Positions 2,703 through 40,041 of a DNA stretch of 45,683 bases are shown here, piece by piece; the first letter of the stretch is position 1, and each line of letters begins with the position of its first letter. This DNA is from Pseudomonadota bacterium. Its GTDB lineage: Bacteria; Pseudomonadota; Alphaproteobacteria; Rhizobiales; Xanthobacteraceae. The notes under the pieces were generated by a model that was given only the letters and a program-made list of their open reading frames with translations, was not told the DNA's origin and did no database searches. The stretch covers positions 1 through 45,683 of the forward strand of contig JAEZFA010000249.1 of the NCBI GenBank assembly GCA_023417665.1, given 5' to 3'. The position numbers and the translations under genes were made by a program.

Positions 2703-4396
2703 AGCGCGAATTCTCCTCCTACGAACTCGAAATTCTCTGGAACCGGCTGCTGGCGATCGCCGAGGAGCAGGCGCAAGTTCTCATGCGCACCGCATTCTCC
2801 ACGATCGTGCGAGAAGCAGGGGACCTCTCGGCGGCGATCTTCGACTCGCGCGGCAGAATGATCGCGCAGGCGCGCACCGGCACCCCGGGCCACATCAATA
2901 CGATGGCGCTCGGGATGCGCCACTTCCTTGCGGAGTATCCGCTCGAAACGCTGGCGCCCGGAGACGCCCTTCTATCGAACGATCCGTACAAGCTGGCCGG
3001 CCAGCTCAACGATATGTCGCTCGTGACGCCCGTGTTCCGCGACGGCAAGGTCGTGGCGCTGTTCGCGAGCTGTTGCCACATGGTCGATGTCGGCGGGATC
3101 GGGCTGACCGCGGACGGCCGCGAAGTGTTCGAAGAGGGGCTGCACGTCCCGTTCTGCAAGTTTCGCGTAGCCGGCGAAGAGAACAAGGACGTTTATCGGT
3201 TCATCACCGCGAACGTGCGCACGCCGCGCGAGGTGATCGGCGACCTCGAAGCACAGGTAGCGGCAGGCGAGGTCGGCGCTTCTCGCCTTCTGGATCTGCT
3301 CGAAGAGTTTGGCCTCTCGCATATCGAGGACTTGTCTGACGAAATCATTTCCCGTTCCGAAGCCGCCATGCGCAAGGCCATTCGTGCATTTCCGGACGGC
3401 GAGTTCCGCAACGTTGCCGTGAACGACGGCATCGAAAAGCCGCTGAAGCTCGCGGTTTGCGTCTCGCGCAAGGACGACGAGATGCTGATCGATTTCGACG
3501 GCACCGACGCCGCCGTCGAACGCGGGATCAATGTGCCGCTGGCTTACACGACGGCCTATGCAACCTATGCCGTCAAATGCGTGGTCGCGCCGGAAGTGCC
3601 GAACAACCACGGCAGTTTCGTGCCCATTCATGTGCAGGCTCCGTCGGGATCTCTGCTCAATCCGGTGCCGCCTGCGCCGACCGCCGCGCGCCATATCCTC
3701 GGCCATTATCTGCCAAGCGTAATCTATCCCGCGCTTGCCGAAGCGCTGCCGGATCGGGTGCCCGCCGACAGCGCTGCCGGACTATGGGTCACGCAGGTCA
3801 GCGGAAAGAGCGTTGCCGGCGAGCCGTTCTCCTTCGCGTTCTTCTCGGTCGGCGGCATGGGCGCGCGTCACGACAAGGATGGCCTTTCCACCACTTCGTT
3901 TCCGAGCGGGATCCAGAACGTCTCGACCGAGATCATCGAATCCGTATCGCCGGTGCTGTTTCGCAAACGGGAGTTGCGTCCGGATTCCGGTGGGGCCGGG
4001 CGTTATCGCGGCGGGCTTGGCCAGACGATCGAATTCGAAGTGCGGGCGGCGGGCCAAGTAACGCTCTCCGCAATGTACGACCGCATTCACGATGCACCGC
4101 GCGGCACGGAAGCCGGCGGAGATGGCGCGGGCGGTGTGGTCATCGGCGAAGCGGGCCGCCAACTGGCGCCGAAGGGACGAAGCACGCTGCGGGCCGGCGA
4201 ACGCGTTCATCTCGAACTGCCGGGCGGCGGTGGTTACGGCGACCCGCGTGAACGCGATCCCGCCGCGCTCGCAAAGGATATCGAGCTTGGGTTTGTCAGC
4301 AGGGACGCTGCGGCGAGCGAATACGGACGATCCTTGCACGCCAAAGCGGAAGTTCCGGCTTCCGGATCAAAAGCGGCAGGCAACAGCGGAAGGTAG
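2699..4396 (+). CDS. hyuB: Hydantoinase B/oxoprolinase family, B subunit
   Basis: 565 aa. N-terminal 'EILWNRLLAIAEEQAQVLMRTAFSTIVREAGDLSAAIFD' is the hallmark HyuB start. Translationally coupled to hyuA. Confidence 0.9.
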   Translation: MKREFSSYELEILWNRLLAIAEEQAQVLMRTAFSTIVREAGDLSAAIFDSRGRMIAQARTGTPGHINTMALGMRHFLAEYPLETLAPGDALLSNDPYKLAGQLNDMSLVTPVFRDGKVVALFASCCHMVDVGGIGLTADGREVFEEGLHVPFCKFRVAGEENKDVYRFITANVRTPREVIGDLEAQVAAGEVGASRLLDLLEEFGLSHIEDLSDEIISRSEAAMRKAIRAFPDGEFRNVAVNDGIEKPLKLAVCVSRKDDEMLIDFDGTDAAVERGINVPLAYTTAYATYAVKCVVAPEVPNNHGSFVPIHVQAPSGSLLNPVPPAPTAARHILGHYLPSVIYPALAEALPDRVPADSAAGLWVTQVSGKSVAGEPFSFAFFSVGGMGARHDKDGLSTTSFPSGIQNVSTEIIESVSPVLFRKRELRPDSGGAGRYRGGLGQTIEFEVRAAGQVTLSAMYDRIHDAPRGTEAGGDGAGGVVIGEAGRQLAPKGRSTLRAGERVHLELPGGGGYGDPRERDPAALAKDIELGFVSRDAAASEYGRSLHAKAEVPASGSKAAGNSGR

Positions 4397-4450
4397 CAAG
4401 GCTCGACAGCGCGGTGCTGCCGGGAATGTTCAACAGGGGAGACCGGTGTA

Positions 4451-8623: not shown

Positions 8624-9574
8624 TTATAGCGTCATTCCGGGAATGTGATCGTCGGTAATTCTTGCGATGCAATGGCTCGCGAATTCCTGCAGCAGTTTCG
8701 TTTTCCGGATTTGGCTCAGGAAGGCGAGCCCGATCGTCGGCCGCCGGTAATTGCCCGCGAGCGGTACCCGCACCAGCTGCTTGCCATCGAGCGAGATGTC
8801 GCATTTCGGCTGCACATGAAGGATTGCGAATCCGTAGCCGTTGCCGACCAGAGAGCGCAGCATCTCGATGTTCGGCGTGGTGATGGATACCTTGGGTTCG
8901 TATCCGTCGTTCTCGAACAATTGTAGCATTGCGTCGCTGCTGAACGGCAGGTCCAGCAAGATCATCGGTTCATTACGCACGTCTGCGAGCGTGAGCGAGA
9001 TGCGCGTCGCCAGCGGGTGATTGACCGGGAGCAGGACGTAAGGTGGGAGGCTTGCCAGCGGAATGAATTCGATTTCTCCCGGCATTGCCATCGCGGCGGG
9101 ATCGAGGCGCACGGCGTCGTAGGTGATGGCGGCGTCGATCTCGGCCGACCGCAAGCCCTCGATCAGCGATCGCTGGTTTCCTTCAATCGGCCGCAGCATC
9201 GTGTTGGGATGCTTCTGCGTGAACTCGGACAGCAATTGCGGCATGATGATGGGGGCGAGCGTGATCATGCAGCCGACGCTCAGCTTGCCGCGGACTTCTT
9301 CGGTCAGGTCGGACGCAAGATTGTAAATCGCGTCAGCCTGCGTGATCACCGCTTTTGCTTCGCGAAGGATGGTTTCTCCGATCGACGTCAGGGACAGGCC
9401 TTGCGCGTGGTGACGGAGAAACAGTTGTACGCCCAGCTCCCGCTCCAGATGCGAGATTGCGGTCGAAATCGATGGCTGGGAAATATTGATGTATTCCGAT
9501 GCCAGCTTGATGCTTCCGGTTTCCGCCGCAGCAATGAAATATTGTAGCTGTCGAAGCGAGTAACGCATTTGCAT
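8624..9574 (-). CDS. LysR-family transcriptional regulator
   Basis: 'MQMRYSLRQLQYFIAAAETGSIKLASEYINISQPSISTAISHLERELGVQLF' is a classic LysR HTH. I trimmed the start to Met13 of the 328-aa ORF; Met at 9568 is also possible. Confidence 0.85.
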   Translation of the reverse strand: MQMRYSLRQLQYFIAAAETGSIKLASEYINISQPSISTAISHLERELGVQLFLRHHAQGLSLTSIGETILREAKAVITQADAIYNLASDLTEEVRGKLSVGCMITLAPIIMPQLLSEFTQKHPNTMLRPIEGNQRSLIEGLRSAEIDAAITYDAVRLDPAAMAMPGEIEFIPLASLPPYVLLPVNHPLATRISLTLADVRNEPMILLDLPFSSDAMLQLFENDGYEPKVSITTPNIEMLRSLVGNGYGFAILHVQPKCDISLDGKQLVRVPLAGNYRRPTIGLAFLSQIRKTKLLQEFASHCIARITDDHIPGMTL

Positions 9575-9645
9575 TTCTGGTCGTCGGGGCGCACGGAGCA
9601 GCCTGCGCAATTCAAAACACAGTATAGATGCATGCAGCGACCGGA

Positions 9646-9666: not shown

Positions 9667-9820
9667 CGATGCCTAATGTTTGAATTTCCAAACCAGCCGC
9701 AAAAAAAATGGAAATTTACATGCGATCTGCGCTTTCATCTAATGCAGGCACGGTCGCGGTTTCGCGCGTATCTGCAGCGTGTTCCGCAAATCCTCATACG
9801 CAGAACCAAGGGTAAGCACG

Positions 9821-11056
9821 ATGCTGCAAGATCTGTTCAAGCACGTCGAGAAGGACGAGCTGATCAGCGTTGCCTCGGAACTAATCAAGTTTCCCAGCTT
9901 CAAAAATCAGGAAACGCCGGTGGCGAAGCATCTTGAGCAGTGGTTTGGCGAGCGCGGATATGAAGTCGAGCTCGATGAAGTCGAGCCCGGCCGCTTTCAG
10001 ACCATCGCTACGCTCAAGGGCGAAGGGGGTGGCGGCAACAGCCTGATGTTCAACGCGCATATCGATATCAACTCGCTGGTGCGCGGCTGGAAGCGCGACC
10101 CGTGGCAGGCGTGGGTCGAGGGCGACAAGCTGTTCGGCCACGGCGTGCAGAACATGAAGGGCGGGCTTGCGACGATCATGGTTGCGGCGGATGCCTTCCG
10201 TAAGGCGAACGTCAAGCTCAAGGGCGATCTCGTGCTCGCCTGTGTCGTCGGCGAAACGCAGGGCGGCGAGGGCATGCATCATCTGATGAAGCGCGGTTTT
10301 CGCACCGACATGGCCGTCATCACCGAGCCTTATGGCCGCGGCAATCTGGTCACGGTGCATGCCGGCATCCTTCACATGGCGGTGCATGTTTATGGCCGCA
10401 CTGCACACATGAGCAGGCCGAAAGGCAGCATTCACGCCATCCACAAGATGGTGAAGGTGATCGAAGGGCTGAACACGGTGGATTTCACCTATACGCCGCG
10501 CGCCGACCTGCCTGACCTTCCACTTTTGAACGTCGGCAGCATCATCGGCGGCCGCGGCGACGACTACTATCTTTCCGATGCGCCCTACATTCCGGATATG
10601 TGCACGGTAATTGTCGATGTGCATTTTCTGCCCGGACAGACGGTTGAGGGTATCGTTGCCGACATTCGGCAGCGTCTCGACAAGGTCAAGGCGACGGATC
10701 CCGAAATCGATTATGCAATCGAAATCCCGCCGCCGGACTTCTTCGTCTCCCGCCGCCGGCTCGTGATGCCGCCGCTCGACGTGCCGTCGGATGCAAACAT
10801 CGTCCAGGCGATTGCGCGAAACTTCGAGAAGGTGACGGGCGAGAAAGTGCGCTCGATCGGCTCTCTGGTGCCGAACTCCTACTCGGCCTGCGATACTTCG
10901 TGGCTGTGGGACGCGGGGATTCCGTGCCTGAATTACGGGCCGACCACGGGTAACGGAGGCGGCGGTCCGGAGAACGCGTTCGTCGTGATCAGCGAGATGG
11001 AGGAGTGCGCCAAGGTGCTGATCGCGACGGCAGAGGAGGTTTGCGTCGCTGCCTAG
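9821..11056 (+). CDS. M20-family (ArgE/DapE/CPG2-like) homologue with a degenerate second metal site
   Basis: 411 aa from ATG 9821 (the ORF track extends to GTG 9779). 'NAHIDIN' (His/Asp) and 'AVITEP' (Glu) are retained. However 'GHGVQNMKGG' has Asn where the bridging Asp sits, 'VGETQGGEG' replaces 'DEE', and the C-terminal 'GGGPEN' replaces 'AHxPDE'. Confidence 0.75.
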   Translation: MLQDLFKHVEKDELISVASELIKFPSFKNQETPVAKHLEQWFGERGYEVELDEVEPGRFQTIATLKGEGGGGNSLMFNAHIDINSLVRGWKRDPWQAWVEGDKLFGHGVQNMKGGLATIMVAADAFRKANVKLKGDLVLACVVGETQGGEGMHHLMKRGFRTDMAVITEPYGRGNLVTVHAGILHMAVHVYGRTAHMSRPKGSIHAIHKMVKVIEGLNTVDFTYTPRADLPDLPLLNVGSIIGGRGDDYYLSDAPYIPDMCTVIVDVHFLPGQTVEGIVADIRQRLDKVKATDPEIDYAIEIPPPDFFVSRRRLVMPPLDVPSDANIVQAIARNFEKVTGEKVRSIGSLVPNSYSACDTSWLWDAGIPCLNYGPTTGNGGGGPENAFVVISEMEECAKVLIATAEEVCVAA

Positions 11057-11085: not shown

Positions 11086-12396
11086 GTGAACAAGAAATCC
11101 GGAAACAGGCTGGACGTCGTTTCCATCCGGCGGGATTTGCACGCGCATCCTGAAACCGGATTTCTCGAGTATCGCACGGCATCCCGCGTCGCTTCGACCT
11201 TGAAGGAACTGGGCTGGCAGATCTCGGCCGGCCCGGAGGTGATGCGCGCCGACGCAATGATGGGGCGGCCATCGCTTCCGCGCATCGAAGCGGCGCAGAA
11301 ATATGCCGCGGAAAACGGGGCGTCGCCGGAATGGGTTTCGCGCATGCCCGATGGCCAGACCGGAATCGTTGCGGACATGAAGCGGGGCGAGGGGCCGGTG
11401 GTGGCGTTTCGCTTCGATATGGACGCGCTTCCGGTGCTGGAGGCGGCGGAAGATATTCACAAGCCGGCGGCGGGAGGATTCCGTTCGCTTCGCGACGGCG
11501 CAATGCATGCCTGCGCACATGACGGGCATACGGCCATTGGTATGTGTGTCGGTGAACGGATTGCGCTCAGCGACAGCTGGCAGGGCACGGTAAGGCTCGT
11601 TTTTCAGCCTGCCGAGGAGGGCGGCCGCGGTGCCTATCCGATGGTGAAGGCGGGCGTATTCGAGAACGTCGACTATTTCTTTGCGGCACATCTGGGCTGC
11701 AACGTGCCGAGCGGGACCATTGCCGCGCAGATTTCGGGGCATCTGTTTTCTAAAAAGTTCAACGTCTCGCTGCGGGGGGTGGCCGCGCATGCGGCGTCGG
11801 CCCCGGAGCGCGGCAGGAATGCGCTGCTCGCGGGCGCCGCCATGGTAGTCGCGCTGCATGGCATCGTCAGTCCGGCGAAAGCCCGGACGGTACTGAATGT
11901 GGGCAAGATGGTTGCCGGCACGACGCGAAATGTCGTTGCCGACAGCTGCGAACTTGAACTTGAGGTTCGCGGCGACTCCGAAGAATCGCTCGCTTACATT
12001 TCCAGGCGGATGGAAGAGATCATTGCAGGCATTGCTTCGGCTTATGGGGTCGAGTTCTCGCTCGAACTTGTCGGGCATACCATCGGCGCGAGTGCCGACG
12101 CCGGCGCGATCGAGATCGTCGCCAGGGCCGCGCATGCGACGAAGGCCGTGCAATCCGTTCTGCCGAACTGGGTATCGGGCGGCAGCGAGGATGCAACATT
12201 CATGATGCGCGCCGTGCAGGAGCGCGGCGGCGTCGCGGCTTATTTCGGCATCGGCAGCAACATCCCCGCGCCACACCACGCCGCGAACTTCGATATCGAT
12301 GAGCGTTCGCTCGCCATGGGGGTCGATGTGTTCGTCAATATTGCCGAACAGCTGCTGTCCCGCGAGCCGGACAATGCAAGGGAGCCGGTGACATGA
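11086..12396 (+). CDS. M20D-family amidohydrolase (aminoacylase/hippurate-hydrolase-like)
   Basis: GTG 11086 follows a GGGAG RBS (the ORF track extends to 11005). 'IRRDLHAHPETGF', 'MHACAHDGH', 'FQPAEEGGRGA' and 'PAPHHAANFDIDE' give the complete M20D ligand set. Confidence 0.85.
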   Translation: MNKKSGNRLDVVSIRRDLHAHPETGFLEYRTASRVASTLKELGWQISAGPEVMRADAMMGRPSLPRIEAAQKYAAENGASPEWVSRMPDGQTGIVADMKRGEGPVVAFRFDMDALPVLEAAEDIHKPAAGGFRSLRDGAMHACAHDGHTAIGMCVGERIALSDSWQGTVRLVFQPAEEGGRGAYPMVKAGVFENVDYFFAAHLGCNVPSGTIAAQISGHLFSKKFNVSLRGVAAHAASAPERGRNALLAGAAMVVALHGIVSPAKARTVLNVGKMVAGTTRNVVADSCELELEVRGDSEESLAYISRRMEEIIAGIASAYGVEFSLELVGHTIGASADAGAIEIVARAAHATKAVQSVLPNWVSGGSEDATFMMRAVQERGGVAAYFGIGSNIPAPHHAANFDIDERSLAMGVDVFVNIAEQLLSREPDNAREPVT

Positions 12397-13091
12397 CCTA
12401 TTCGGTCGTAGCGCGCTGCGCCGAAACCGGCGCATTCGGAATTGCGATCACGTCCTCGAGCATATGCGTGCCGAGCCGTTGTGCGTGGGTCGGTCCGCTT
12501 GGCGCGGTGGTGACGCAGAACCTGACCAACCCCGGCCTGGGGCCGGCGGGCCTGCAACTGCTTCGTCAGGGAATGGGCGCGAAGGCGGTATTGACTGCGC
12601 TTATCGACGGCGATCCGTCGCCGGCCTGGCGACAGGTCGCGGTCATCGACCGCTATGACCAGATCGCCTTTCATTCGGGCGCGAAGTCGCTTCCTGCGGT
12701 CGGGGTGAGCCGCGGCAAGGAATGCTTCGCCTTCGGAAATATCCTGGCGAACAGCGACGTTCCGAAAGCGATGACGGATCGCTTCGACATGCTGGCCGGC
12801 CGCTCGCTTGCCGAGCGCTTGCTGCAGGCGCTCGAGGCGGGTCTTGATGCCGGCGGCGAAGTGGCGGATGAGCGCGCGGCCGGTCTTCACGTTTGTCAGA
12901 CTTATGACTGGCCGGTCGTGGATCTGCGTGTCGACTGGCATCCCGACCCGATCGTAAAACTTCGCGAAATCTGGACGGAGTATGAACCGCAAGCGCACCT
13001 TTTCGCGCTGCGCGCCAGCGCCCCCGAGGAAGCCGCGCTTCTGAAAGAGTCCGCCGCCCTCGGCTTGATCCAGTCCGGAAGAAAAACATGA
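12393..13091 (+). CDS. DUF1028-family protein (Ntn-hydrolase fold, function unknown)
   Basis: 232 aa. N-terminal 'MTYSVVARCAETGAFGIAITSSS…GAVVTQN' matches the DUF1028 start (Thr2 is the putative nucleophile). ATGA overlaps at both ends. Confidence 0.65.
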   Translation: MTYSVVARCAETGAFGIAITSSSICVPSRCAWVGPLGAVVTQNLTNPGLGPAGLQLLRQGMGAKAVLTALIDGDPSPAWRQVAVIDRYDQIAFHSGAKSLPAVGVSRGKECFAFGNILANSDVPKAMTDRFDMLAGRSLAERLLQALEAGLDAGGEVADERAAGLHVCQTYDWPVVDLRVDWHPDPIVKLREIWTEYEPQAHLFALRASAPEEAALLKESAALGLIQSGRKT

Positions 13092-13543
13092 CGCAAGCGC
13101 CCATCATTTATTTTCTGAATGGTCCGAATACCAATCTTTACGGAGCCTCTGCCGCTTCGCACGCTCCCGGCGTTTCGTTTGCGGGGTTGCAGTCTGACTG
13201 CGAAGCGCTTGCGGAGAAGCTCGGCCTGTCGCTCAGGTTCCTGCAGTCGAACTATGAAGGCCAAATCGTCGACTGGATCCAGGAGGCGCGGGGCAGTGCG
13301 GCGGGTCTTGCGATCAATGGTGCGGGTCTGACCTATACCTCCATTGCCGTGCTCGACGCGCTGCTTGCGTTCGACAAGCCCATTCTTGAAGTGCACATGA
13401 GCAATATCTGGAAGCGCGAGCCGTTTCGCCACCATTCCTACATATCGCGTGCGGCAACGGGTGTTATCGCCGGTCTCGGCGCGAGAGGGTATATGCTCGC
13501 CATCCGTACACTGGCGGAACTGGTTGCTGACGGTGGAAAATGA
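13088..13543 (+). CDS. Type II 3-dehydroquinate dehydratase-like protein (AroQ fold) lacking the catalytic lid Arg/Tyr
   Basis: 151 aa. 'LNGPNTNL', 'QSNYEGQIVDWI', 'INGAGLTYTS' and 'EVHMSNIWKREPFRHHSY' identify the fold. The lid is 'YGASAASHAPG' instead of 'LGxRxPxxYG'. Confidence 0.8.
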   Translation: MTQAPIIYFLNGPNTNLYGASAASHAPGVSFAGLQSDCEALAEKLGLSLRFLQSNYEGQIVDWIQEARGSAAGLAINGAGLTYTSIAVLDALLAFDKPILEVHMSNIWKREPFRHHSYISRAATGVIAGLGARGYMLAIRTLAELVADGGK

Positions 13544-14478
13544 GCGCGCAGGAATACATCGTCTATTACGGCGGAATAGATAACTTCTCCGACTGGAAGT
13601 CCGCGATCGCGCGTGAAATTCCGGACGTCGCGCTGTTCCGGCATGACGAAAGCTTCGAGCCGGCGAAAGTCCGTTACGCGATGGTCTGGAAGCCGCCGCT
13701 GGGATTTTTCAGCCGCTTCAGCAATCTGATGTTCGTCGCGAACCTTGGCGCAGGGGTCGACGCAATTCTTGCCTCTCCCGATCTGCCGGAAGTGCCGATT
13801 ACGCGCATCTACGATCCGGGTATGGCGAAGCTGATGTCGAACTACATCTCCTTCGCTGTCCTGCGATACGCGCGGGATATTCCGCTTCTGGAAGCGCAGC
13901 AAAAGCAGCAGGTGTGGCAGTACAAGCGGCCGCGCAATCCGGATGAAATCCGCGTGGGCTTTCTCGGCATCGGCGAACTCGGCGCGCATGCAGCAAAGCA
14001 GCTTGCGCAGCAGGGGTTTGCCGTGACCGGATGCTCGCGCTCGGCGTCTCCGGTCGATGGCATCGAGAAAGTGTATCCGCTGGAGCGGATAAAGGAGTTT
14101 CTGAATCAAACCGAGATTCTGGTCGTCATGCTTCCGCTGACCAGGGAAACCCGCGGTCTGATCGATGCCGAACTGCTGTCCGCGCTGCCTGAGGGCGCGA
14201 AGATCATCAATCCGGCGCGCGGCGCCATCTTCAAGGAAGCCGATCTTATCGGCGCACTTCAATCCGGGCATATCGAAGCGGCGACGCTCGACACCTTCGA
14301 GGTCGAGCCGCTGCCGAAGAACAGTCCGCTATGGACGTTGCCGAATGTTCTCATTACGCCGCATCTGGCATCGCATCCGGTCCCGTCATCATCGGCGCCG
14401 CAGATTGCAGAGAACATCCGACGCATGCGCCGCGGCGATAAACTGTTGAACGAAGTGTTTCGTTCGCGCGGCTACTAG
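13540..14478 (+). CDS. ghrA: D-2-hydroxyacid dehydrogenase, glyoxylate/hydroxypyruvate reductase A-like
   Basis: 312 aa. 'YAMVWKPP', 'LGAGVD', NAD fold 'VGFLGIGELG', Arg/Glu/His triad ('NPARG', 'FEVEPLP', 'TPHLAS'). The C-terminal '…RSRGY' resembles E. coli GhrA as I recall it. Confidence 0.75.
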   Translation: MSAQEYIVYYGGIDNFSDWKSAIAREIPDVALFRHDESFEPAKVRYAMVWKPPLGFFSRFSNLMFVANLGAGVDAILASPDLPEVPITRIYDPGMAKLMSNYISFAVLRYARDIPLLEAQQKQQVWQYKRPRNPDEIRVGFLGIGELGAHAAKQLAQQGFAVTGCSRSASPVDGIEKVYPLERIKEFLNQTEILVVMLPLTRETRGLIDAELLSALPEGAKIINPARGAIFKEADLIGALQSGHIEAATLDTFEVEPLPKNSPLWTLPNVLITPHLASHPVPSSSAPQIAENIRRMRRGDKLLNEVFRSRGY

Positions 14479-14772: not shown

Positions 14773-15804
14773 ATGAAGATACGTGGGTTAATGTTTGCGG
14801 CAGTCATGTCGGCGATCGGGATGAGCGCCGCCGGCGCGCAGGAAAAACTCGTGATCGACAGCTGGGGCGGAAAATTCCCGAAGTCGGTAACAGAGTTCGT
14901 CGCCAAGAAGTTCAAAGCGGAAACCGGTGCCGACATCGAATTCATCACCGGCGGCACGATCGATCGCCTGAACAAAGCCAAGCTGATGAAGGCGCGCCCC
15001 GAAAGCGATATCACGTTCACGACGGCGCATGTCGGCTGGCTCTACGTCAATGACGGCCTGTTCGAGAAGCTCGACCTTTCCAAGATTCCGAACGCAAAGA
15101 ACCTCTTCAGCACGTCGAAGATCAGCGACTATCACCTCGCCGTGTACGGCTATGTCTACACGATCGCATACCGTACCGATCTGACACCGAAGGGAATTGA
15201 ATTCACGACGTGGGAAGATCTGTGGCGTCCCGAGCTGAAGGGCATGATCTCCGCGGCCGACTTCGATCCGAGCCACGTCATCAGCGTGGCGGCGCATCTC
15301 GCCGGTGCGCCCGCGGCGCATTGGGAAAAAGGCCAGGACAAGCTTCGCGCGCTGAAACCGAACTTCAAAGCGTTCTTCACGAACGATGCGAACAGCATCC
15401 AGCTGTTCTCCTCTGGTGAGACGCCGGTGCAGGTTCTTCTTTCGTCGAACGGCTATCACATGATGAAGCAGGGCGTGCCGATGAAGATCGTTGTGCCGAA
15501 GGAAGGTGCCGTGCTCGGCATCGACACCATCTCGATCACCAAGGGCACGAAGAAGGCCGACCTTGCCTACAAGTTCATTAATATCGTGCTGTCGCCCGAA
15601 GTGCAGAAGGGATGGGCGGAAAGCGAGAAGCGTAGCCCGGCCGTCTCGAACGTGAAGCTGAGCGACGAGACCGCGAAGCTGCCTGGCGTCATGACGACCG
15701 AAGAGCAGTGGAAAACCATGACGCTTCCGATGGACCAGAAGGTGCGCGCCGAAAAGCTCGGCGAATGGCGTAAGTGGTTCACCGAGAACATGATCGCGAA
15801 GTGA
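14773..15804 (+). CDS. ABC transporter substrate-binding protein (PotD/PotF-like, family 1)
   Basis: 343 aa. Signal peptide MKIRGLMFAAVMSAIGMSAAGAQE. 'IDSWGG…' start typical of polyamine/opine-type binding proteins. Confidence 0.8.
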   Translation: MKIRGLMFAAVMSAIGMSAAGAQEKLVIDSWGGKFPKSVTEFVAKKFKAETGADIEFITGGTIDRLNKAKLMKARPESDITFTTAHVGWLYVNDGLFEKLDLSKIPNAKNLFSTSKISDYHLAVYGYVYTIAYRTDLTPKGIEFTTWEDLWRPELKGMISAADFDPSHVISVAAHLAGAPAAHWEKGQDKLRALKPNFKAFFTNDANSIQLFSSGETPVQVLLSSNGYHMMKQGVPMKIVVPKEGAVLGIDTISITKGTKKADLAYKFINIVLSPEVQKGWAESEKRSPAVSNVKLSDETAKLPGVMTTEEQWKTMTLPMDQKVRAEKLGEWRKWFTENMIAK

Positions 15805-15821
15805 TCTGAACCTCAAGATTT

Positions 15822-15853
15822 GCGCGGACGGTTCCTGAGCGGGCCGTCCGCGC
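15822..15853 (+). other. Intercistronic stem-loop after the binding-protein gene
   Basis: GCGCGGACGG (15822-15831) and CCGTCCGCGC (15844-15853) form a perfect 10-bp GC-rich stem with a 12-nt loop. No U-tract follows. Confidence 0.5.
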
Positions 15854-15868
15854 GACAAGGCGGAACAC

Positions 15869-16723
15869 ATGAAGAAGCGTCACTTTATAGGATGGTTCCT
15901 TACGCCCGCGGCGATGGTCGCGATCGGCTTCGCAGCGCTCATGTTTGCGATGCTGCAGTATGGCCTTCGAGCGCATATCCCCGGGTCACTGGATGTCGGC
16001 GGCTTCACGTTCGAGAATTTCACGGTGATCGTGAAGAACTCGATCTACGCGAAGGTCTTCGTCGATACGGTAGTGATCTGCTTCTTTACCGCGCTGTTTT
16101 CCCTGCTGCTCGGCTACCCGCTGGCCTATGCGCTGGTGAATGTCGAAAGCAAGTGGATCAAGTCCGCAATCCTCATCATTTCAATCACGCCGCTCTTTCT
16201 GGGCGAGGTCGTGCGGACCTATTCCTGGATTCTCGTCCTTGGAAATTCCGGCTTCATCAATAGCGTGCTGATGGGGCTCGGGATCATCGAGCGGCCGTTT
16301 CAGCTGATGTTCACGACCACAGGCGTCACCATGGCGCTGGTGCACGTTACGCTGCCGATCGTCGTCATCATGCTTGCGGTGGCGATCGCGCATATCGATC
16401 AGGATTACAAGAAAGCGGCGACGAGTCTCGGCGCCGGCCCGGTGCGCGTTTTCATGACGGTCACGCTGCCGCTTTCCATCCCCGGAATTCTGGCCGGGAC
16501 GCTTACGGCATTCGCGACGACGTTCAGCGCGTTCGCGACGCCGAGTGTAATCGGCGGCGGCAAGATCAACATGGTGTCGAACCTGGTTTATCAGCTCGGC
16601 CTTGCCTCGTTCAATTTCCCGCTTGCGGCCAGCCTGAGCATTTCCAGCCTTGCCCTCATTCTCCTGATCGTCGGTCTCGTCGGAAGAGCATCGAAGAAGG
16701 TCGAGCGCTATGCGGAGCACTGA
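15869..16723 (+). CDS. ABC transporter permease (PotB-like)
   Basis: 284 aa polytopic protein. EAA-type loop '…DYKKAATSLGAGPVRVFMTVTLP'. Confidence 0.85.
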   Translation: MKKRHFIGWFLTPAAMVAIGFAALMFAMLQYGLRAHIPGSLDVGGFTFENFTVIVKNSIYAKVFVDTVVICFFTALFSLLLGYPLAYALVNVESKWIKSAILIISITPLFLGEVVRTYSWILVLGNSGFINSVLMGLGIIERPFQLMFTTTGVTMALVHVTLPIVVIMLAVAIAHIDQDYKKAATSLGAGPVRVFMTVTLPLSIPGILAGTLTAFATTFSAFATPSVIGGGKINMVSNLVYQLGLASFNFPLAASLSISSLALILLIVGLVGRASKKVERYAEH

Positions 16724-16726
16724 GCA

Positions 16727-17545
16727 ATGAACGCAAAAGTCATGAAGTCGCTGCCCGGATTTCTCGTCAAGGCGCTGGTTGTTGCGATTCTCGGCTTCAT
16801 TCTGATGCCGACGATCGTCGTGGCAATATCGGCGTTCGACGCGCGGGAATTTCAGGCGTTTCCGCCGAAGGACCTTTCGATTCGCTGGTTCATCAACGCA
16901 TTCGAGTACCGCGATTTCAGGATCGGTCTCGTAAACAGCGTTTATGTGATGCTGTGGACGTCTTCGCTGGCGCTGTTGATCGGCGTCGGGTTCTCGCTCG
17001 CGCTGCATCGCTACGAGTTTCAGTACAAGAGAACGCTGGAAACGATTCTGATGTCGCCGCTGATCGTGCCGCATTTCACGGTCGGGCTCGGCATTCTCAT
17101 TCTTCTGGCGCAAGCCAATCTGCCGCTCAGCTACGCCGCGGTCATCTTCTGCCATCTGGTGCTCGTGCTGCCTTACGTCATCCGGAGCATCTATGTTTCG
17201 CTGAAGAATCTGGATGGTCGCTATGAGCTTGCGGCGGCGAGTCTGGGTGCTTCGCCGCGCCGCGTGTTGTTCACGGTGACGCTGCCGCTGTTGATACCCG
17301 GCATGGTCGGCGGATGGCTGTTCGCGGCAATTCTCTCGTTCAACGAATTCACCGGTTCGCTCTTTATCACGAACCAGTCGACCCAGACGCTGCCGGTCGC
17401 GATGTACAACTATGTGCGCGAATACGCCGACCCGACGCTGGCGGCGATTGCGGTCGTCTACATCGTGATCACCGGCACGCTGCTGGTCCTTGCGAACTAC
17501 TACCTGGGTTTGGGGAAGGTGCTGAATGTCGAACAGACTCGCTGA
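16727..17545 (+). CDS. ABC transporter permease (PotC-like)
   Basis: 272 aa. '…YELAAASLGASPRRVLFTVTLPLL' EAA loop. Confidence 0.85.
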   Translation: MNAKVMKSLPGFLVKALVVAILGFILMPTIVVAISAFDAREFQAFPPKDLSIRWFINAFEYRDFRIGLVNSVYVMLWTSSLALLIGVGFSLALHRYEFQYKRTLETILMSPLIVPHFTVGLGILILLAQANLPLSYAAVIFCHLVLVLPYVIRSIYVSLKNLDGRYELAAASLGASPRRVLFTVTLPLLIPGMVGGWLFAAILSFNEFTGSLFITNQSTQTLPVAMYNYVREYADPTLAAIAVVYIVITGTLLVLANYYLGLGKVLNVEQTR

Positions 17546-18659
17546 TAATCTCAAGGAGAGCGCGATTGTGAAGGCTTCGATGACGCCGGAGACGATTGCC
17601 GTAAAGCTGGATGCCGTCACCAAACGCTTCGGCGATACGGTCGCGCTCCACGAGGCTTGGCTCAAAGTACGTTCGGGCGAGTTCATGACGCTGCTCGGCC
17701 CTTCGGGCTGCGGCAAGACGACGATTCTCAACCTCGTCGCCGGCTTTCTCGAGTGCGATGCCGGTGAAATCTTCATCAGCGGCGAACTGGTGACGGAAAC
17801 GCCTACCTACAAGCGCGAGATCGGGATCGTCTTCCAGAACTACTCGCTGTTCCCGCACATGACCGTCGAGAGTAATGTCGGATACGGGTTGCGCGCGCGC
17901 GGCGTGAAGGCCGAGGAAATCGCGGTCCGTGTCAACGAGGCGCTGGAGCTGGTCAAGCTGTCGGGCTTCGAGAAGCGCAAGCCCAAGCAACTGTCCGGCG
18001 GCCAGCAGCAACGCGTGGCGCTCGCACGCGCGCTGGTGCTGCGGCCCAAGGTGCTCCTGCTCGACGAGCCGTTCTCCGCGCTCGACAAGAATCTGCGCGC
18101 CTCGATGCAGATCGAGCTCAAGGAGATCCAGAGCAAGCTCGGCGTGACCACGATCTTCGTAACCCACGACCAGAGCGAAGCGCTCAGCATGTCGGACCGG
18201 ATCGCGGTGATGTCGGCCGGCAAAATCCGGCAGATCGGTACGCCGATGGAGGTCTATGAGCATCCGTCGGATGAGTTCGTCGCTTCGTTCATCGGCGATG
18301 TGAACGTTTTTGCCGGCCGCGTTGGCGAAGCGGGTCGCATTGCTATCGGCGAGACCGAGATCGCGCTGCCGGAAGCGAAGCGCGGTTCGACCAGCGGCAG
18401 TTCGGTGAGGCTGTTCGCCCGCCCGGAACATCTCCGGCTTGTGAACGCGGAGATGGCGGGTTCGCTGCAGGCGACCGTGCAGACGCTGGTCTATCAGGGA
18501 AGTCACATCGACGTGCATCTGGCCTGCGCAAGTGCCGAGAGCGGCCGAATAATGGTGCGCGTTCCGTCCGCCGCCGTGAGCGAGAAGCTCGCAGTGGGCG
18601 CGCCGGTAGGGCTGCAGTTCGTGCCTGAGAAGCTGAACATCTTCAACATGAGTGAATGA
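17526..18659 (+). CDS. ABC transporter ATP-binding protein (PotA-like, with C-terminal TOBE-like domain)
   Basis: Walker A 'GPSGCGKTT', signature 'LSGGQQQRVALARAL', Walker B 'LLLDEPFSALD'. The start is ambiguous: ATG 17526, GTG 17568 (AAGGAG RBS 9 nt upstream) or ATG 17580. Confidence 0.85.
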   Translation: MSNRLADNLKESAIVKASMTPETIAVKLDAVTKRFGDTVALHEAWLKVRSGEFMTLLGPSGCGKTTILNLVAGFLECDAGEIFISGELVTETPTYKREIGIVFQNYSLFPHMTVESNVGYGLRARGVKAEEIAVRVNEALELVKLSGFEKRKPKQLSGGQQQRVALARALVLRPKVLLLDEPFSALDKNLRASMQIELKEIQSKLGVTTIFVTHDQSEALSMSDRIAVMSAGKIRQIGTPMEVYEHPSDEFVASFIGDVNVFAGRVGEAGRIAIGETEIALPEAKRGSTSGSSVRLFARPEHLRLVNAEMAGSLQATVQTLVYQGSHIDVHLACASAESGRIMVRVPSAAVSEKLAVGAPVGLQFVPEKLNIFNMSE

Positions 18660-18660
18660 A

Positions 18661-19269
18661 ATGAAATTATTCTACGCGATCACGTCGCCTTACGTCAGAA
18701 AGGTGATGGTTACGGCTTACGAGCACGGGCTTACCGACCGCATCGAACTGATCAAGATGCCGGCGAAGGATCCGCTGGAGCCGTCCATTGCGACTAGCCA
18801 CAACCCGCTCGGAAAAATCCCGACGCTGATTACCGACGACGGCGAGGCGATCTACGACAGCGTCGTGATCTGCGAATATCTCGATGGGCTTGCTCCGGAA
18901 GCGAAGCGGCTGTTTCCCGGCGGCGAGGAGAAAATCCCTTCACTCGTGCTGCATGCGCTCGCCAACGGCATGATCGATGCGGGCATGGCGGCGCGCGCCG
19001 ATGAAGTCGTCAGGCCGGAAGCTTTTCGCTGGGAAGGCGGCAAGAACTACCAGATGGAGAAGATGAGGCTCAGCCTCAAGGAGATCGAGAGCAGGGTCGA
19101 TATGTTCGACGAGGCGCTCTGCATCGGCAAGATCACCGTCGCCTGCGGGCTCGGCTGGTTCGATTTCCGCTTCCCGGGGTTCGACTGGCGCGCGGATTTT
19201 CCGCTGACCGCACAGTGGTTTGAATCGGTGAGCATGCGTCCGTCGATGCAGGCAACGCGGCCGGCGTAA
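18661..19269 (+). CDS. Glutathione S-transferase (YibF-like)
   Basis: 'MKLFYAITSPYVRKVMV…' resembles the YibF 'MKL…YTSPFVRK' N-terminus. 'IPTLITDDGEAIYDSVVICEYL' is the GSH-binding region. ATG lies 1 nt after the ATPase stop. Confidence 0.8.
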   Translation: MKLFYAITSPYVRKVMVTAYEHGLTDRIELIKMPAKDPLEPSIATSHNPLGKIPTLITDDGEAIYDSVVICEYLDGLAPEAKRLFPGGEEKIPSLVLHALANGMIDAGMAARADEVVRPEAFRWEGGKNYQMEKMRLSLKEIESRVDMFDEALCIGKITVACGLGWFDFRFPGFDWRADFPLTAQWFESVSMRPSMQATRPA

Positions 19270-19393: not shown

Positions 19394-20833
19394 ATGATCA
19401 GGACAGGTGAGCAGTATCGGGATTCCATCCGTGACGGCCGGCGCGTCTGGATAAACGGCGAGCGGGTTCAGGACGTGACCCGCCATCCGATGTTCCGTCC
19501 TGCGATTGATGTGCGTGCCTCCTGGTACGATATGCAGCACGACGCCAAGCATCGCGCGACGCTGGTGACGGAAACGGAAAAGTTCGGGCCGGTCTCCAAG
19601 GTTCTGTCGATGCCTTACACGAAAGAGGACTGGCACGAGAAGCGCGCGGCGGTCGAGCTCATGTTTGGCGCCGCAGGGGGCTTCATCACGCGCTATGGCG
19701 ATCCCGGAGAGCTCTGGGCCCTACACGACGGCGAGAAGGTGATCGCCGATCTCGTGCCGGAATATGTGCAGAACGTCCGCCGCCATATTGATCGCGTCAT
19801 CGAGCAGGACCTGTTCACGGCCTCCGCGAATACCGACCCGAAGGGCGACCGCTCCAAGCGCCCGCAGGATCAGGATCCCGACATGCTGCTGCGTGTCGTG
19901 AAGGAGACCGACGCCGGCATCATCGTGCGCGGCGCCAAATACGAGACGGCGGCGGCTTACGCCAACCAGGCGTTCACGAAGCCGACGATCGCGAATTGGG
20001 GCGACAGCGAGCTTTCCGATTACGCGGTCGGCTTCATGTGCAATCTGAGCGCGCCGAACCTGCGCTTCATCTGCCGGACCGGCTTCGCCGGCAACGGAAG
20101 CCCGGAAGATTATCCGCTGTCGAGCCGGTTCGACGAGGTCGATGCGCTGATCGTGTTCGACGACGTGCTGATCCCGTGGGAAGACGTGTTCTTCTGCCGT
20201 CAGACCAATGCCGCGACCTACATTCGCAGCACGCTGCATCGCTACGTCGTGTTCACCTTCGTGATGCGTGCAATGAAAATCGCCGACATGCTGATCGGCG
20301 CTTCGCTTCTCAACGTGCGCCAGACCGGCCTCGAAAAGCAGCCGGCGGTGCAGGAGAAGCTCGCCCACATGGCGGTCTATCGCGAAGGCATCAACGCCTA
20401 CCTCACGGCGGCGATTGCCAGCGCGGAAAGGAGCCCCGGCGGACTGATGATGCCGGCGCAGTCCTTCATGATGACGGGCCGGGTTTTCGCGGTGATGAAC
20501 CTGCACGAGATCGTCCATATCGCCCGCGAGCTTTGCGGCGGTCAGGTGTGCATTACCCCCGATATTGCGGCGTTCCGCGATCCGGAAACCGCGCCCTGGC
20601 TCGAGAAGTACTACACGATCAACGAGTCCTGGCAGGCGGAAGACCGCCGCAAGCTGCTGGCTTATGCGCGCGATCTCATCAATTCGGATTTCGCCGGTCA
20701 TCAGCTCAGCTTCAACTTGTTCTCGCACTCGCCGCCTTATGCGTTGCTCGGCGCGGTCTATCGAAACTTTCCTTGGTCCGAGCCGGTCGATTTCGTGCGC
20801 AAGTCTGCCGGGCTTTCCGACCGCGTGAAGTGA
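19394..20833 (+). CDS. HpaB-family (4-hydroxyphenylacetate 3-monooxygenase-like) FADH2-dependent oxygenase component
   Basis: 479 aa. 'TGEQYRDSIRDGRRVWINGERVQDVTRHP' is the hallmark N-terminus. 'IIVRGAK' and 'PLSSRFDE' are present. Confidence 0.85.
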   Translation: MIRTGEQYRDSIRDGRRVWINGERVQDVTRHPMFRPAIDVRASWYDMQHDAKHRATLVTETEKFGPVSKVLSMPYTKEDWHEKRAAVELMFGAAGGFITRYGDPGELWALHDGEKVIADLVPEYVQNVRRHIDRVIEQDLFTASANTDPKGDRSKRPQDQDPDMLLRVVKETDAGIIVRGAKYETAAAYANQAFTKPTIANWGDSELSDYAVGFMCNLSAPNLRFICRTGFAGNGSPEDYPLSSRFDEVDALIVFDDVLIPWEDVFFCRQTNAATYIRSTLHRYVVFTFVMRAMKIADMLIGASLLNVRQTGLEKQPAVQEKLAHMAVYREGINAYLTAAIASAERSPGGLMMPAQSFMMTGRVFAVMNLHEIVHIARELCGGQVCITPDIAAFRDPETAPWLEKYYTINESWQAEDRRKLLAYARDLINSDFAGHQLSFNLFSHSPPYALLGAVYRNFPWSEPVDFVRKSAGLSDRVK

Positions 20834-20837
20834 TGCC

Positions 20838-22133
20838 GTGAAGACGAAGCTTCAATTCCACCAGCAAGGCTTCGATCATGCGGATATTTCGGGGATCTGG
20901 AGGTCGGGCGAGGCGTCGCGCGATTTCCGGACGCTCTGCTCGTTTGGTGGCCGCTTCGCGGGCACCGCAAGCGAGCGCAATGCCACGGAATATCTTGCGC
21001 TTCGGCTGGAGCAGATCCTTGGCGTGCAGGCGCGGCGGCTGCCGGTACCTTATCTCGGCTGGGACCGCATCGGCGGCCGGCTGGATATGGCAGACGGCGT
21101 CACGATCCCGGCGACGCCGCTCGGCCGCTCTCCGGCGGTCAGCAAGCTGAAAACAAAGGTTGTCGATCTGGGGCGAGGCACGCGCCGCGATTTCGATGCC
21201 GCTGCCGACAGGATCGCGGGTTGTGCCGTGCTTGTCAGCCACGAATACATGCTCGCTTCCGGCCATGTGCACCGCCGCGACAAGTATCGCTGGGCGAAGA
21301 TGTTCGGCGCTTCGGCTTTCATCATTGCCTGCAATCTTCCGGGCAATCTCACGGTGACCGGCTCGGCGGGAAGCGGCGCCGAGGACGATATTCCCGCGGT
21401 CGGGGTGTCATATGAAGACGGCCGGCGCCTTGCCGCGCAAGACGGCGAGATTTCCATCACGGTCGAGGGGAAGTTCGAGAGACGCGTTGCGGAGAATCTG
21501 GTCGTCGATATTCCCGGCAACGGCGATCGCGTCATCCTGCTCTGTGCGCATATCGACGGGCATCACCTTTCCGAGAATGCGATCGACAACACTTCCGGTT
21601 TGACCGTGCTGCTGCTTGCAGCCGGCGTGATCGCCGACATTGCCGAGCGCAGCCGCTATGGGCTCAGGATCGTCCTGTTCAATGTCGAGGAATGGGCGGT
21701 CATTGGTTCCAAACACTATCTCGACTCGCTGCCGGAGCAGGAACGTGCACGCATCGTCCTGAATATCAATCTTGATTCCGTCGCGGGCGCGCGCTCGCTC
21801 ACCGTGCTGACCAGCGGACTTTCGGATTGCGAAGCGCTCGTGAACGAAGTGAACGAGCGTTCGTTGCTGGCACTTGGTATTGAGCGGCCGTTCCTGGGCA
21901 ATTCCGACCATGGAAATTTTATCCGGAAAGGGATTCCGGCAATGCGCCTTTGCGCTGGCTGGAATGACCCGGCCTCGAACCTGCGTTTTCTTCTGACGCC
22001 CGCCGATACGCCCGACAAGGTTTCTCTGCCCGAGATCGGGACGGCGGCGGTGGCAACGGCAATGCTTTTCGAGCGTGCGGTGCAGAGAGACGAGTTTCGC
22101 TTCGACCGCGCGCCGGTCAATGGAGAAGTCTAG
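20838..22133 (+). CDS. M28-family zinc aminopeptidase-like protein (no signal peptide)
   Basis: 431 aa with a GTG start. Full ligand set: 'CAHIDGHH', 'DNTSGL', 'FNVEEW', 'NLDSV', 'SDHGNF'. Confidence 0.8.
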   Translation: MKTKLQFHQQGFDHADISGIWRSGEASRDFRTLCSFGGRFAGTASERNATEYLALRLEQILGVQARRLPVPYLGWDRIGGRLDMADGVTIPATPLGRSPAVSKLKTKVVDLGRGTRRDFDAAADRIAGCAVLVSHEYMLASGHVHRRDKYRWAKMFGASAFIIACNLPGNLTVTGSAGSGAEDDIPAVGVSYEDGRRLAAQDGEISITVEGKFERRVAENLVVDIPGNGDRVILLCAHIDGHHLSENAIDNTSGLTVLLLAAGVIADIAERSRYGLRIVLFNVEEWAVIGSKHYLDSLPEQERARIVLNINLDSVAGARSLTVLTSGLSDCEALVNEVNERSLLALGIERPFLGNSDHGNFIRKGIPAMRLCAGWNDPASNLRFLLTPADTPDKVSLPEIGTAAVATAMLFERAVQRDEFRFDRAPVNGEV

Positions 22134-22627
22134 TGAAGGATATTCAGGAACGCTTCAGGCTTGCCATGCGCGGAACCGTTTCCGGCGTTTCGATCGTGAC
22201 CGCGGCCGGGGAAACCGGACACGTTGGCGTCACCGTGTCCTCGCTCTCGTCGCTGTCGCTGGAGCCGCCGTCGATCCTCGTGGCGATTCACGAGAAAAGC
22301 TACGCGCTTGCGACGATCGAGGCGCGGAAGCACTTCGCCGCCAATATCCTGTCGGGCAGCCAGATGTATCTCGCGGAGATCTTTGCCGGAAGAAGGCCGG
22401 ACATGAGAGGCGACAGGTTCAGCCATGCCTGCTGGCGAACGCTCGCGAGCGGCGCGCCGATTCTGGAGCATGCGATCGCCGCTTTCGACTGCAAGCTGGT
22501 GCAGGTCGTGCCGTTCGGGTCGCACCGGATTCTTCTTGGCGAGGTGCTGGACCTTCGCCATTCCATCGCGCCGGCGCTGTTCTATTCCAACGGCGTTTTC
22601 GGGACTGCGCAGTCCGATCTCGGATAG
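22133..22627 (+). CDS. Flavin reductase (HpaC/flavin_reduct domain)
   Basis: 164 aa. 'FRLAMRGTVSGVSIVTA…VTVSSLSSLSLEPPSILVAI'. GTG overlaps the M28 stop by 1 nt. Confidence 0.85.
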   Translation: MKDIQERFRLAMRGTVSGVSIVTAAGETGHVGVTVSSLSSLSLEPPSILVAIHEKSYALATIEARKHFAANILSGSQMYLAEIFAGRRPDMRGDRFSHACWRTLASGAPILEHAIAAFDCKLVQVVPFGSHRILLGEVLDLRHSIAPALFYSNGVFGTAQSDLG

Positions 22628-22711
22628 CATTGCCGATCCCGGATAGCGTGGCTGGTGCGCTTCGAAGAAAGCGCGCCGCAAACTGCTCAAGCGTCAGCCT
22701 ATGAATTGATC

Positions 22712-23314: not shown

Positions 23315-23361
23315 GCCGCGCTTCTGTGCAGCAAGTTAGCCAACCCGGCCGCATTGCACAA

Positions 23362-23382
23362 TTGACAGCAATTTATATTTGC
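23362..23382. promoter_or_regulatory. Candidate -35 box / MarR operator
   Basis: TTGACA (23362-23367) is followed by GCAATTTATATTTGC (GCAA-N7-TTGC dyad) in the 124-bp divergent spacer. Confidence 0.3.
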
Positions 23383-23438
23383 CACAAAACTATCTCAGAA
23401 ATGGAAACGCAAGCACCGCGTTGACGTTTGGAGGCGGG

Positions 23439-23957: not shown

Positions 23958-23977
23958 TAACGGATGGAACGACCCAA

Positions 23978-25453: not shown

Positions 25454-25465
25454 GGGAGCGCCGGT

Positions 25466-25846: not shown

Positions 25847-25887
25847 GTCACCCACTCGTATCAGCACTCGCAAACGGGGGAATAAAA

Positions 25888-38623: not shown

Positions 38624-38784
38624 TTGAAAGGCGAGCAACGCATTCTGGAATCCGTCGATGACGCAAACTGTTCGGCTCCATCGCCATTGCGATCCACGTT
38701 TCGCCTGCGGGTTCGTCGCTGCTTCAACGAGCAATACGCCGGGGCGACGCGGCGACGGTGAGCAATTGTGCAAGGAGATGTGGA

Positions 38785-39990: not shown

Positions 39991-40041
39991 GGCGCGAAAG
40001 GCGAGGAATTCCAGAAGCCAACCGCAACGGAGTGGCGGGAC

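Follow-up and report, generated by a model that had tools for sequence, protein, structure and literature searches.

We analyzed a gene at 13088..13543 (+) in a 45,683-nucleotide stretch of DNA (the window; contig JAEZFA010000249.1, assembly GCA_023417665.1) from a Pseudomonadota bacterium of the Xanthobacteraceae. Its 151-residue product is, by profile match and structural model, a member of the DHquinase_II superfamily with the type II dehydroquinase fold. The Arg and Tyr of the substrate-covering lid are regarded as indispensable in type II dehydroquinase, a textbook enzyme that is also a target for antibacterial drugs; the window protein has neither. Phylogenetically the gene falls in a monophyletic, uncharacterized sister family of the type II dehydroquinases, for which we coin the name AroQL. 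Two of its departures from the canonical enzyme, the missing lid Arg and a "TYTS" in place of "THTS", are traits of this whole family in our alignments, and only the loss of the lid Tyr, together with that of a family-specific Asp, is peculiar to the small clade that contains the window gene. The label "3-dehydroquinate dehydratase" is almost certainly wrong for the window gene, because the family never has the Arg and this copy also lacks the catalytic Tyr. We favor the view that the gene probably encodes an active, neofunctionalized AroQL enzyme with a substrate other than dehydroquinate.

Fold, lid and pocket of the window protein

The Pfam DHquinase_II profile (PF01220) matches the window protein over nearly its full length (residues 7-142 of 151, model positions 2-137 of 138) with 148.9 bits (E 1e-43; cut-off 23.3 bits). 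An AlphaFold2 (AF2) model made with 54 homologs has a mean predicted local distance difference test (pLDDT) score of 89.9, and the best structures found for it by Foldseek are 1gtz and 1d0i (template modeling (TM) score 0.89-0.91, root-mean-square deviation (rmsd) 1.5-1.7 A). An initial annotation of this DNA, made from the letters alone, had recognized the AroQ fold from its core motifs, and these (NGPN, QSN(Y)EG in the form QSNYEG, EVHMSN and FRHHS) are all found in the protein. The same annotation had proposed an AlphaFold model of the lid; the model obtained is confident for the overall fold but not for lid residues 21-30, the sole internal low-confidence stretch, with a mean pLDDT of 64.

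In canonical dehydroquinases the lid Arg and Asp88' activate the lid Tyr, which takes the pro-S proton at C2, and His101 protonates the leaving C1 hydroxyl; the carboxylate is held by Asn75, Ile102 and Ser103, the C5 hydroxyl by His81 and Arg112, the C4 hydroxyl by Asp88', and the ketone by a water that Asn12 holds (PMC6011038). Positions marked Sc below are those of the Streptomyces coelicolor enzyme, to which the HMMER alignment runs without gaps through the lid. The lid of the window protein (residues 15-31, TNLYGASAASHAPGVSF; 13130..13180, +) was delimited by the ungapped alignment to 1d0i, column statistics and a codon view. Ser21 (codon 13148-13150) stands at Sc Arg23, His25 (13160-13162) at Sc Ile27, Ala26 (13163-13165) at Sc Tyr28 and Pro27 at Sc Gly29. 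The profile alignment therefore places neither an Arg nor a Tyr at the two lid positions, as had been read from the sequence. The first 49 residues contain no Arg at all. The sole Tyr in the lid, Tyr18, aligns with Sc Leu20 and is by this alignment a residue common to the subfamily rather than a shifted catalytic Tyr. The reading of the "THTS" His as Tyr likewise held: Tyr83 (13334..13336) occupies the position of the His that binds the C5 hydroxyl (Sc His85, Mycobacterium tuberculosis His81), a change seen throughout the subfamily.

Other pocket residues are retained. The general-acid His103 and its partner Glu101 (Sc His106 and Glu104; Glu101-Val102-His103, 13388..13396) are invariant in AroQL and canonical sequences alike. 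Also present are Asp90, corresponding to the essential Asp contributed by the neighboring subunit (M. tuberculosis Asp88', Sc Asp92'), the ligands of the carboxylate and C1 hydroxyl, Asn77 and Ser105 (Sc Asn79 and Ser108), the ketone-water residue Asn14 (Sc Asn16), and Arg110 and Arg114 (Sc Arg113 and Arg117). To the initial annotation a canonical dehydration mechanism had looked impossible. The lid Arg and Tyr on whose absence this was founded are indeed missing, but the verdict is too strong given that the acid pair and these binding residues are intact and that His25 is a possible base.

The lid sequence is rare. Among the 150 nearest representatives at 50% identity, 97 of the 102 with readable lids have both Arg and Tyr. 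It is nonetheless no assembly artifact, because the same lid, S(A/S)ASHAPGVSF, recurs in two metagenome sequences of independent origin that are 86% and 82% identical to the window protein.

AroQL as a sister family of the type II dehydroquinases

Homologs were sampled as the best 120 of 2,066 plus 160 genomic and metagenomic loci, and they separate into two sharply distinct sequence classes. Canonical AroQ proteins follow the pattern NGPNLNLLGxR(E/Q)PxxYG ... THTS ... SNI(H/Y), whereas the nearest relatives of the window protein follow NGPNANLYGLDxxGxYG ... TY(T/S)S ... SNIW. AroQL designates the clade with Tyr at Sc 85, sampled here with 224 unique sequences, which form one exclusive clade in a maximum-likelihood tree (support 0.874, stem 0.34). 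The lid Arg is found in none of these 224 sequences and in all 35 outside the clade; Sc 85 is Tyr in all 224 and His (24), Thr (10) or Phe (1) in the canonical set. The AroQL lid usually has Asp or Glu at Sc 23 (216/224) and Tyr at Sc 28 (219/224). Thus, two of the lid and "TYTS" oddities first credited to the window gene are hallmarks of its family, while the loss of the lid Tyr is specific to its clade.

Column statistics, computed over 215 unique AroQL and 23 canonical sequences, extend the list of family changes. Sc Leu17 is replaced by Ala (214/215) and Leu20 by Tyr (215/215), and further changes are Arg23 to Asp or Glu, Thr32 to Ser, Leu33 to Phe, His85 to Tyr, Ile107 to Met and His111 to Trp. 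Invariant or nearly so in AroQL are Sc Asn16, Tyr28, Asn79, Asp92', Glu104, His106, Ser108, Arg113 and Arg117. Of the parts of the canonical mechanism, then, only the Arg and the His for the C5 hydroxyl are altered in AroQL, and two Tyr, a Trp, a Phe and an Asp are added around the mouth of the pocket.

The aroQ equivalog model TIGR01088 scores the window protein at 147.6 bits, under its cut-off of 169.85, and five other AroQL members at 144-158 bits, all below the cut-off as well; canonical controls pass (L076, 200.9; L081, 190.5). The loose subfamily model NF003807 scores the window protein at 149.6 bits, over its cut-off of 130. No NCBI protein-family model is specific to AroQL, and every annotation name inspected for the family reads "type II 3-dehydroquinate dehydratase", a name it gets because the loose subfamily model alone matches. 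No solved structure falls within AroQL, the best identity of a PDB entry to the window protein being 46%.

The lid Tyr has been replaced independently elsewhere in the family: by Asp in P0019, from three separate assemblies and still with a reductase partner downstream (see below), by Glu in P0016 and by Cys in P0143 (a 50%-cluster representative). With Asp, Glu and Cys among the replacements, this position is repeatedly mutable, often to residues capable of acid-base chemistry. The Asp-for-Tyr variant, with the lid "GTDG", was seen in locus L171 (6775-8159) and also in L172 and L173, each time followed by the reductase; it adjoins a 2-oxoglutarate-Fe(II) oxygenase and an NMT1-type ATP-binding cassette (ABC) system, not the gene island usual for the family.

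Several other variants of the fold were encountered. Locus L013, from Aliirhizobium smilacinae, has an AroQL gene and a second type II dehydroquinase paralog 6 kb apart (3971-4408 (-) and 10001-10453 (+)); the second paralog has a canonical Arg/Tyr lid and Phe at the His85 position ("YTFTS"). Ten metagenome loci (L145, L147, L151, L154, L156, L157, L161-L163 and L165) combine a canonical lid with Thr for the C5-hydroxyl-binding His85. Six 50%-cluster representatives of about 300 residues (P0121, P0123, P0136, P0153, P0157 and P0159) are matched twice by the window protein and look like tandem DHquinase_II domains.

A clade of three without the lid Tyr

The window protein and two relatives form a clade with support of 0.999 and a stem of 0.38 substitutions per site, nested in AroQL. 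This trio nests in an eight-member clade (support 0.956) with L003 and Bradyrhizobium-type copies, and the neighboring L003/P0004 has the lid LSALGVYG, with the Tyr present. A search for further Tyr-less members in genome contigs, metagenome contigs and an index of 5.8 billion proteins returned just P0002 and P0003. The window protein keeps the AroQL signatures Tyr18, Ser30, Phe31, Tyr83, Met104 and Trp108 (Sc Tyr20, Ser32, Phe33, Tyr85, Met107 and Trp111) and departs from the family lid with Ser at Sc 23, Ala at Sc 28 and Thr at Sc 17. At a threshold of 90% conservation in AroQL, 81 positions qualify; eight of them differ throughout the clade, and the other 73 are unchanged. Four of the eight are lid positions (Ala to Thr, Asp to Ser, Tyr to Ala and Gly to Pro), an enrichment of 4/11 lid positions against 4/70 elsewhere (Fisher p = 0.01).

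Within the trio, non-synonymous divergence (dN) is 0.08-0.14 and synonymous divergence (dS) is saturated, and the comparison of the window gene with L167 gives a dN/dS of 0.03. The lid sequence "SHAPGVSF" and every pocket residue, binding and acid, are identical in all three. By these measures the clade is under strong purifying selection, and from the low dN with saturated dS, taken with the focusing of changes in the lid, we infer that the pattern is one of a remodeled, selected function and not of decay.

As to how this lid arose, a compensated frameshift was considered and rejected, as sister lids read out of frame do not yield "SHAPG". An in-frame register shift is possible, in which a pair of one-codon indels would turn YGPD into HAPG. 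With such indels, HAPG matches the YGPD of the sister sequences and the Tyr column is taken by His25, not by a Tyr; His25 might in that case descend directly from the Tyr (TAC to CAC). With dS saturated, the sequences do not discriminate between a register shift and plain substitution.

A conserved gene island with a GHRA-type reductase

In 102 of the 111 AroQL loci with enough flanking sequence, the next gene downstream, on the same strand, encodes a GHRA-type D-2-hydroxyacid dehydrogenase; this is so in none of 29 canonical aroQ loci. In the window this gene (13540..14478, +; Pfam 2-Hacid_dh_C, 153 bits) is translationally coupled to the AroQL gene, the stop of which overlaps its ATG by 4 bp at 13540-13543 in an ATGA. 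Its open reading frame (ORF) is intact. The product scores 210 bits with the NCBIfam GhrA model, under the cut-off of 403, and 196 bits against the GhrA structure 3kbo; against the Xanthobacter autotrophicus structures 4XA8 and 5VG6 it scores 353 bits at about 60% identity, and the GHRA-specific Trp ("VWKPP") is kept. From this similarity, 4XA8 and 5VG6 are probably orthologs of the AroQL-coupled reductase. No physiological function has yet been discovered for GHRA enzymes (PMC6303947). Both X. autotrophicus entries are solved but functionally unassigned, and a Xanthobacter locus (L050) has an AroQL-reductase pair.

Further neighbors were counted within 10 kb in the 77 AroQL loci with at least 8 kb on both sides. 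The genes of a PotD-like ABC importer occur in 69-74 of these loci, as orthologs 55-66% identical to those of the window. DUF1028 and RidA are each found in 69, an MSMEG_0569-like flavin oxidoreductase resembling flavin-containing monooxygenases (FMO-like) in 67, a glutathione S-transferase (GST) in 65, a LysR regulator in 60, a PIG3-type quinone oxidoreductase (QOR) in 55, an ArgE-like M20 protein in 35 and an alpha-hydroxy-acid oxidase in 24. Shikimate or quinate genes were found in none of the 77. In the wider clade of the window gene, HpaB and a flavin reductase take the place of the FMO-like oxygenase (L004, L007, L009, L050 and L168).

AroQL spans Alpha-, Beta- and Gammaproteobacteria, and hosts of the island include Rhizobium, Methylobacterium, Achromobacter, Bordetella, Paraburkholderia, Pseudomonas, Pantoea and Erwinia. 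IncF plasmids carry it too, in Klebsiella pneumoniae and, in a few cases, in Escherichia coli: tblastn hits lie in 106 Klebsiella and seven Escherichia plasmid records. Of 5,426 complete E. coli genomes, only one has it. The K. pneumoniae plasmid pKPHRJ (NZ_CP120848.1; L170, 6758-20065), a conjugative IncFII plasmid, carries a complete island in the order RidA, DUF1028, ArgE-like M20, ABC ATPase, quinone oxidoreductase, GST, AroQL, GhrA-like reductase, LysR (opposite strand), binding protein, two permeases, FMO-like oxygenase and alpha-hydroxy-acid oxidase.

The window copy sits in a variant of this arrangement, which has two additional M20 genes and one M28 gene and in which RidA and QOR are absent. 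A divergent LysR-family regulator (8624..9610, -; Pfam HTH_1 and LysR_substrate) precedes an M20 ArgE/DapE-family deacylase paralog (9779..11056, +), which has an 89% identical homolog in the same order in L001. Next lies an M20 amidohydrolase (11086..12396, +; Pfam Peptidase_M20 and M20_dimer) with 291 bits in TIGR01891 (amidohydrolases), over the cut-off of 153.75, and likewise conserved in L001; its start is uncertain, the longest ORF running from 11005. The DUF1028 gene (12393..13091, +; Pfam DUF1028, 205 bits) is translationally coupled to AroQL, the ATG of which overlaps the DUF1028 stop in the ATGA at 13088-13091, and DUF1028 is upstream of the AroQL gene in all three members of the Tyr-less clade. 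The only solved relative of the DUF1028 protein is PDB 2imh.

Beyond the reductase are the PotD-like ABC importer (14773..18659, +), made up of a binding protein (14773-15804), two permeases (15869-16723 and 16727-17545) and an ATPase (17526-18659), and a GST-family protein (18652..19269, +; Pfam GST_N_2/3). Profile scans then identified an HpaB-type oxygenase (19394-20833, +), an M28 peptidase (20838-22133, +) and a flavin reductase (22133-22627, +). The M28 peptidase has a PA domain and sits between the oxygenase and the flavin reductase with short gaps or overlaps. Solved homologs of the binding protein, the DUF1028 protein and the reductase are only unliganded or unnamed structural-genomics entries and give no clue to a substrate. 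Among the ORFs scanned in the window there is no shikimate or quinate (aro, qui) gene, bearing out the non-shikimate context first described, and the AroQL gene is the only type II dehydroquinase gene.

The window, at positions 19394-27183 and 38758-40545, is an island of two-component flavin monooxygenases, with two HpaB-type oxygenases, one acyl-CoA-dehydrogenase-like oxygenase and four flavin reductases, interleaved with amidohydrolases, four importers and several LysR and MarR regulators. In the Bradyrhizobium-type loci L005 (764-7931) and L168 (2915-5278), which hold the nearest Tyr-bearing relatives of the window gene, a molybdopterin oxidoreductase of about 785 residues precedes the AroQL-reductase-GST trio; L005 also contains Amidohydro_1, urocanase-like and S-Me-THD-like genes.

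Proposed function and alternative explanations

An active AroQL enzyme could work as follows. It would bind a carboxylated, hydroxylated ligand that resembles dehydroquinate at C1, C3 and C4 and differs on the C5 and lid side, and would carry out on it an enolization or beta-elimination of the dehydroquinase type. This step would feed or follow the NAD(P)H-dependent GHRA-type reductase encoded by the overlapping gene. Both enzymes would act in a LysR-controlled operon that imports a compound through the PotD-like ABC system, strips amide or acyl groups from it with the two M20 enzymes, DUF1028 and M28, and oxygenates it with HpaB and the flavin reductase. A cationic or amine substituent on the ligand would go well with the aromatic-plus-acid rim of the pocket and with the PotD-like importer. 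In the clade of the window gene the lid was rebuilt a second time, from Asp to Ser, Tyr to Ala and Gly to Pro, with His25 as a new invariant residue. This is most likely a change of base (His25, Tyr18 or Tyr83), of substrate or of both, and not a loss of function. His25 is the leading candidate for the replacement base, with Tyr18 and Tyr83 as alternatives, but that specific assignment is doubtful.

Taking the island as a whole, we tentatively propose that the AroQL and GHRA-reductase pair may be the conserved core of an oxidative pathway, not described so far, that scavenges an imported carboxylate, probably one bearing an amine, with a reaction new to the fold and with a clade, that of the window gene, which has swapped the Tyr/Asp lid for a His-based one. 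The other recurrent parts of such a pathway could be, just as tentatively, the PotD-like importer, the DUF1028 and M20 hydrolases, RidA, GST and an interchangeable oxygenase. Rut-like ring opening, glyoxylate-releasing N-dealkylation, amino-dehydroquinate, and cyclohexanone-type amino acids or dipeptides were all considered in connection with the substrate, by analogy of gene content only, and none is claimed.

Several points count against an active enzyme of this kind. Its substrate and reaction rest solely on retained residues and gene neighbors, and the Tyr-less clade is represented by only three sequences. The pLDDT of the lid is just 64, and the AF2 model gives no placement of His25 toward the pocket. 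A literature search found nothing on the AroQL subfamily or its gene island, and no biochemical data for any member. A look for sequencing runs, of RNA or DNA, that contain the stretch returned none. Finally, the lid Arg and Tyr are essential in canonical enzymes (PMC6011038), and a protein without both could be inactive. This last consideration is also the starting point of the main rival, which we regard as unlikely: a non-catalytic AroQ-fold pseudoenzyme that keeps the oligomer and the binding of a dehydroquinate-like ligand, and serves as a binder, sequesterer or scaffold of the reductase, or as a sensor. The length of the stem branch (0.38) suggests a burst of change, a physical complex would accord with the tight translational coupling of the two genes, and a structural role would also show purifying selection. 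However, a pure scaffold need not retain His103/Glu101, Asp90', Asn14 and both Arg, which are kept in all three members of the clade and are invariant or nearly so in AroQL. The changes, moreover, are focused in the lid and then frozen, the new invariant His included, and the parallel replacements of Tyr by Asp and Glu elsewhere in the family bring in possible bases. The initial annotation had left the choice between a neofunctionalized enzyme and a scaffold; selection does speak less for decay than for a new function or for a non-catalytic role, but in silico evidence makes no choice between these two.

It is improbable that the protein has remained a 3-dehydroquinate dehydratase, in a catabolic or back-up role and with His25, Tyr18 or another residue as its alternative base. 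The ligands of the carboxylate, C1 hydroxyl, C3 ketone and C4 hydroxyl of dehydroquinate are all retained, public annotation pipelines name the subfamily accordingly, and the NF003807 threshold is passed (149.6 versus 130). Yet the aroQ equivalog cut-off, which canonical controls pass, is failed; the essential Arg is absent from all 224 family members and mostly replaced by the oppositely charged Asp; the His ligand of the C5 hydroxyl is a Tyr; and neither the window nor the 77 well-flanked loci contain a shikimate or quinate gene. The family is, in addition, carried on plasmids of Klebsiella and E. coli, hosts that already make AroD. Less probable still, and disfavored by us, is a decaying gene, that is, a recently inactivated AroQL copy becoming a pseudogene. 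The loss of an Asp and a Tyr that are 97-100% conserved in the subfamily, on a long branch, would fit it, but the full-length ORF is intact with its operon coupling in three lineages, synonymous divergence is saturated while dN stays at 0.08-0.14, and 73 of the 81 conserved positions are untouched. An active enzyme with a new substrate thus continues to be the reading we prefer.

A populous family without any lid Arg marks a systematic misannotation, and the GHRA reductases gain a fixed genetic partner to study. The natural lid variants (Asp/Tyr, Ser/His, Asp/Asp and Asp/Glu), of which the window gene is the most derived, let one ask how this fold builds a base. The wider AroQL and GHRA module is a more interesting object than the single window gene. 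If the scavenging pathway proposed above is real, the AroQL reaction would be new to the dehydroquinase fold, and the clade of the window gene would be a natural experiment in exchanging a lid for a different substrate.

Comparison with known systems

A comparison of the window protein with canonical AroQ (PF01220, TIGR01088; S. coelicolor 1D0I/1GU1, M. tuberculosis 2DHQ/3N59) shows the same fold (TM 0.9, rmsd 1.5 A) at about 46% identity, with equal length and a lid free of indels. The NGPN, QSN-EG and EVH-SN motifs are common to both, as are the carboxylate-binding Asn and Ser, the Asp', the His-Glu pair and two Arg (Sc 113 and 117). Unlike canonical AroQ, the window protein has Ser21 for the lid Arg, Ala26 for the lid Tyr and Tyr for His85, and falls below the equivalog cut-off; its gene has no shikimate, quinate or accBC context and is coupled to a GHRA-type reductase. 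The top PDB match in both sequence and fold is the R23A mutant of the S. coelicolor enzyme (1GTZ), which shares with the window protein a small residue at the Arg position. That entry, however, comes from a true dehydroquinase with an engineered loss-of-function mutation and, unlike the window protein, still has Tyr28 and His85.

Identity to other AroQL proteins (copies from K. pneumoniae pKPHRJ, Achromobacter, Bordetella, Methylobacterium and Rhizobium) is 55-68%, with the window protein nested inside the family. Shared with their loci are the downstream GHRA-type reductase, DUF1028, the PotD-like ABC importer, GST and LysR. Unlike the other members, the window protein has Ser for Asp/Glu at the Arg position, Ala for the 98%-conserved Tyr, Pro for the Gly next to it and Thr for Ala at Sc 17. 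Its operon contains two M20 genes, M28, and HpaB with a reductase, whereas RidA, QOR and an FMO-like oxygenase are found in most other AroQL loci. Compared with the GHRA subfamily (E. coli GhrA; X. autotrophicus 4XA8/5VG6), the window reductase retains the GHRA Trp (PMC6303947) but scores below the GhrA equivalog cut-off.

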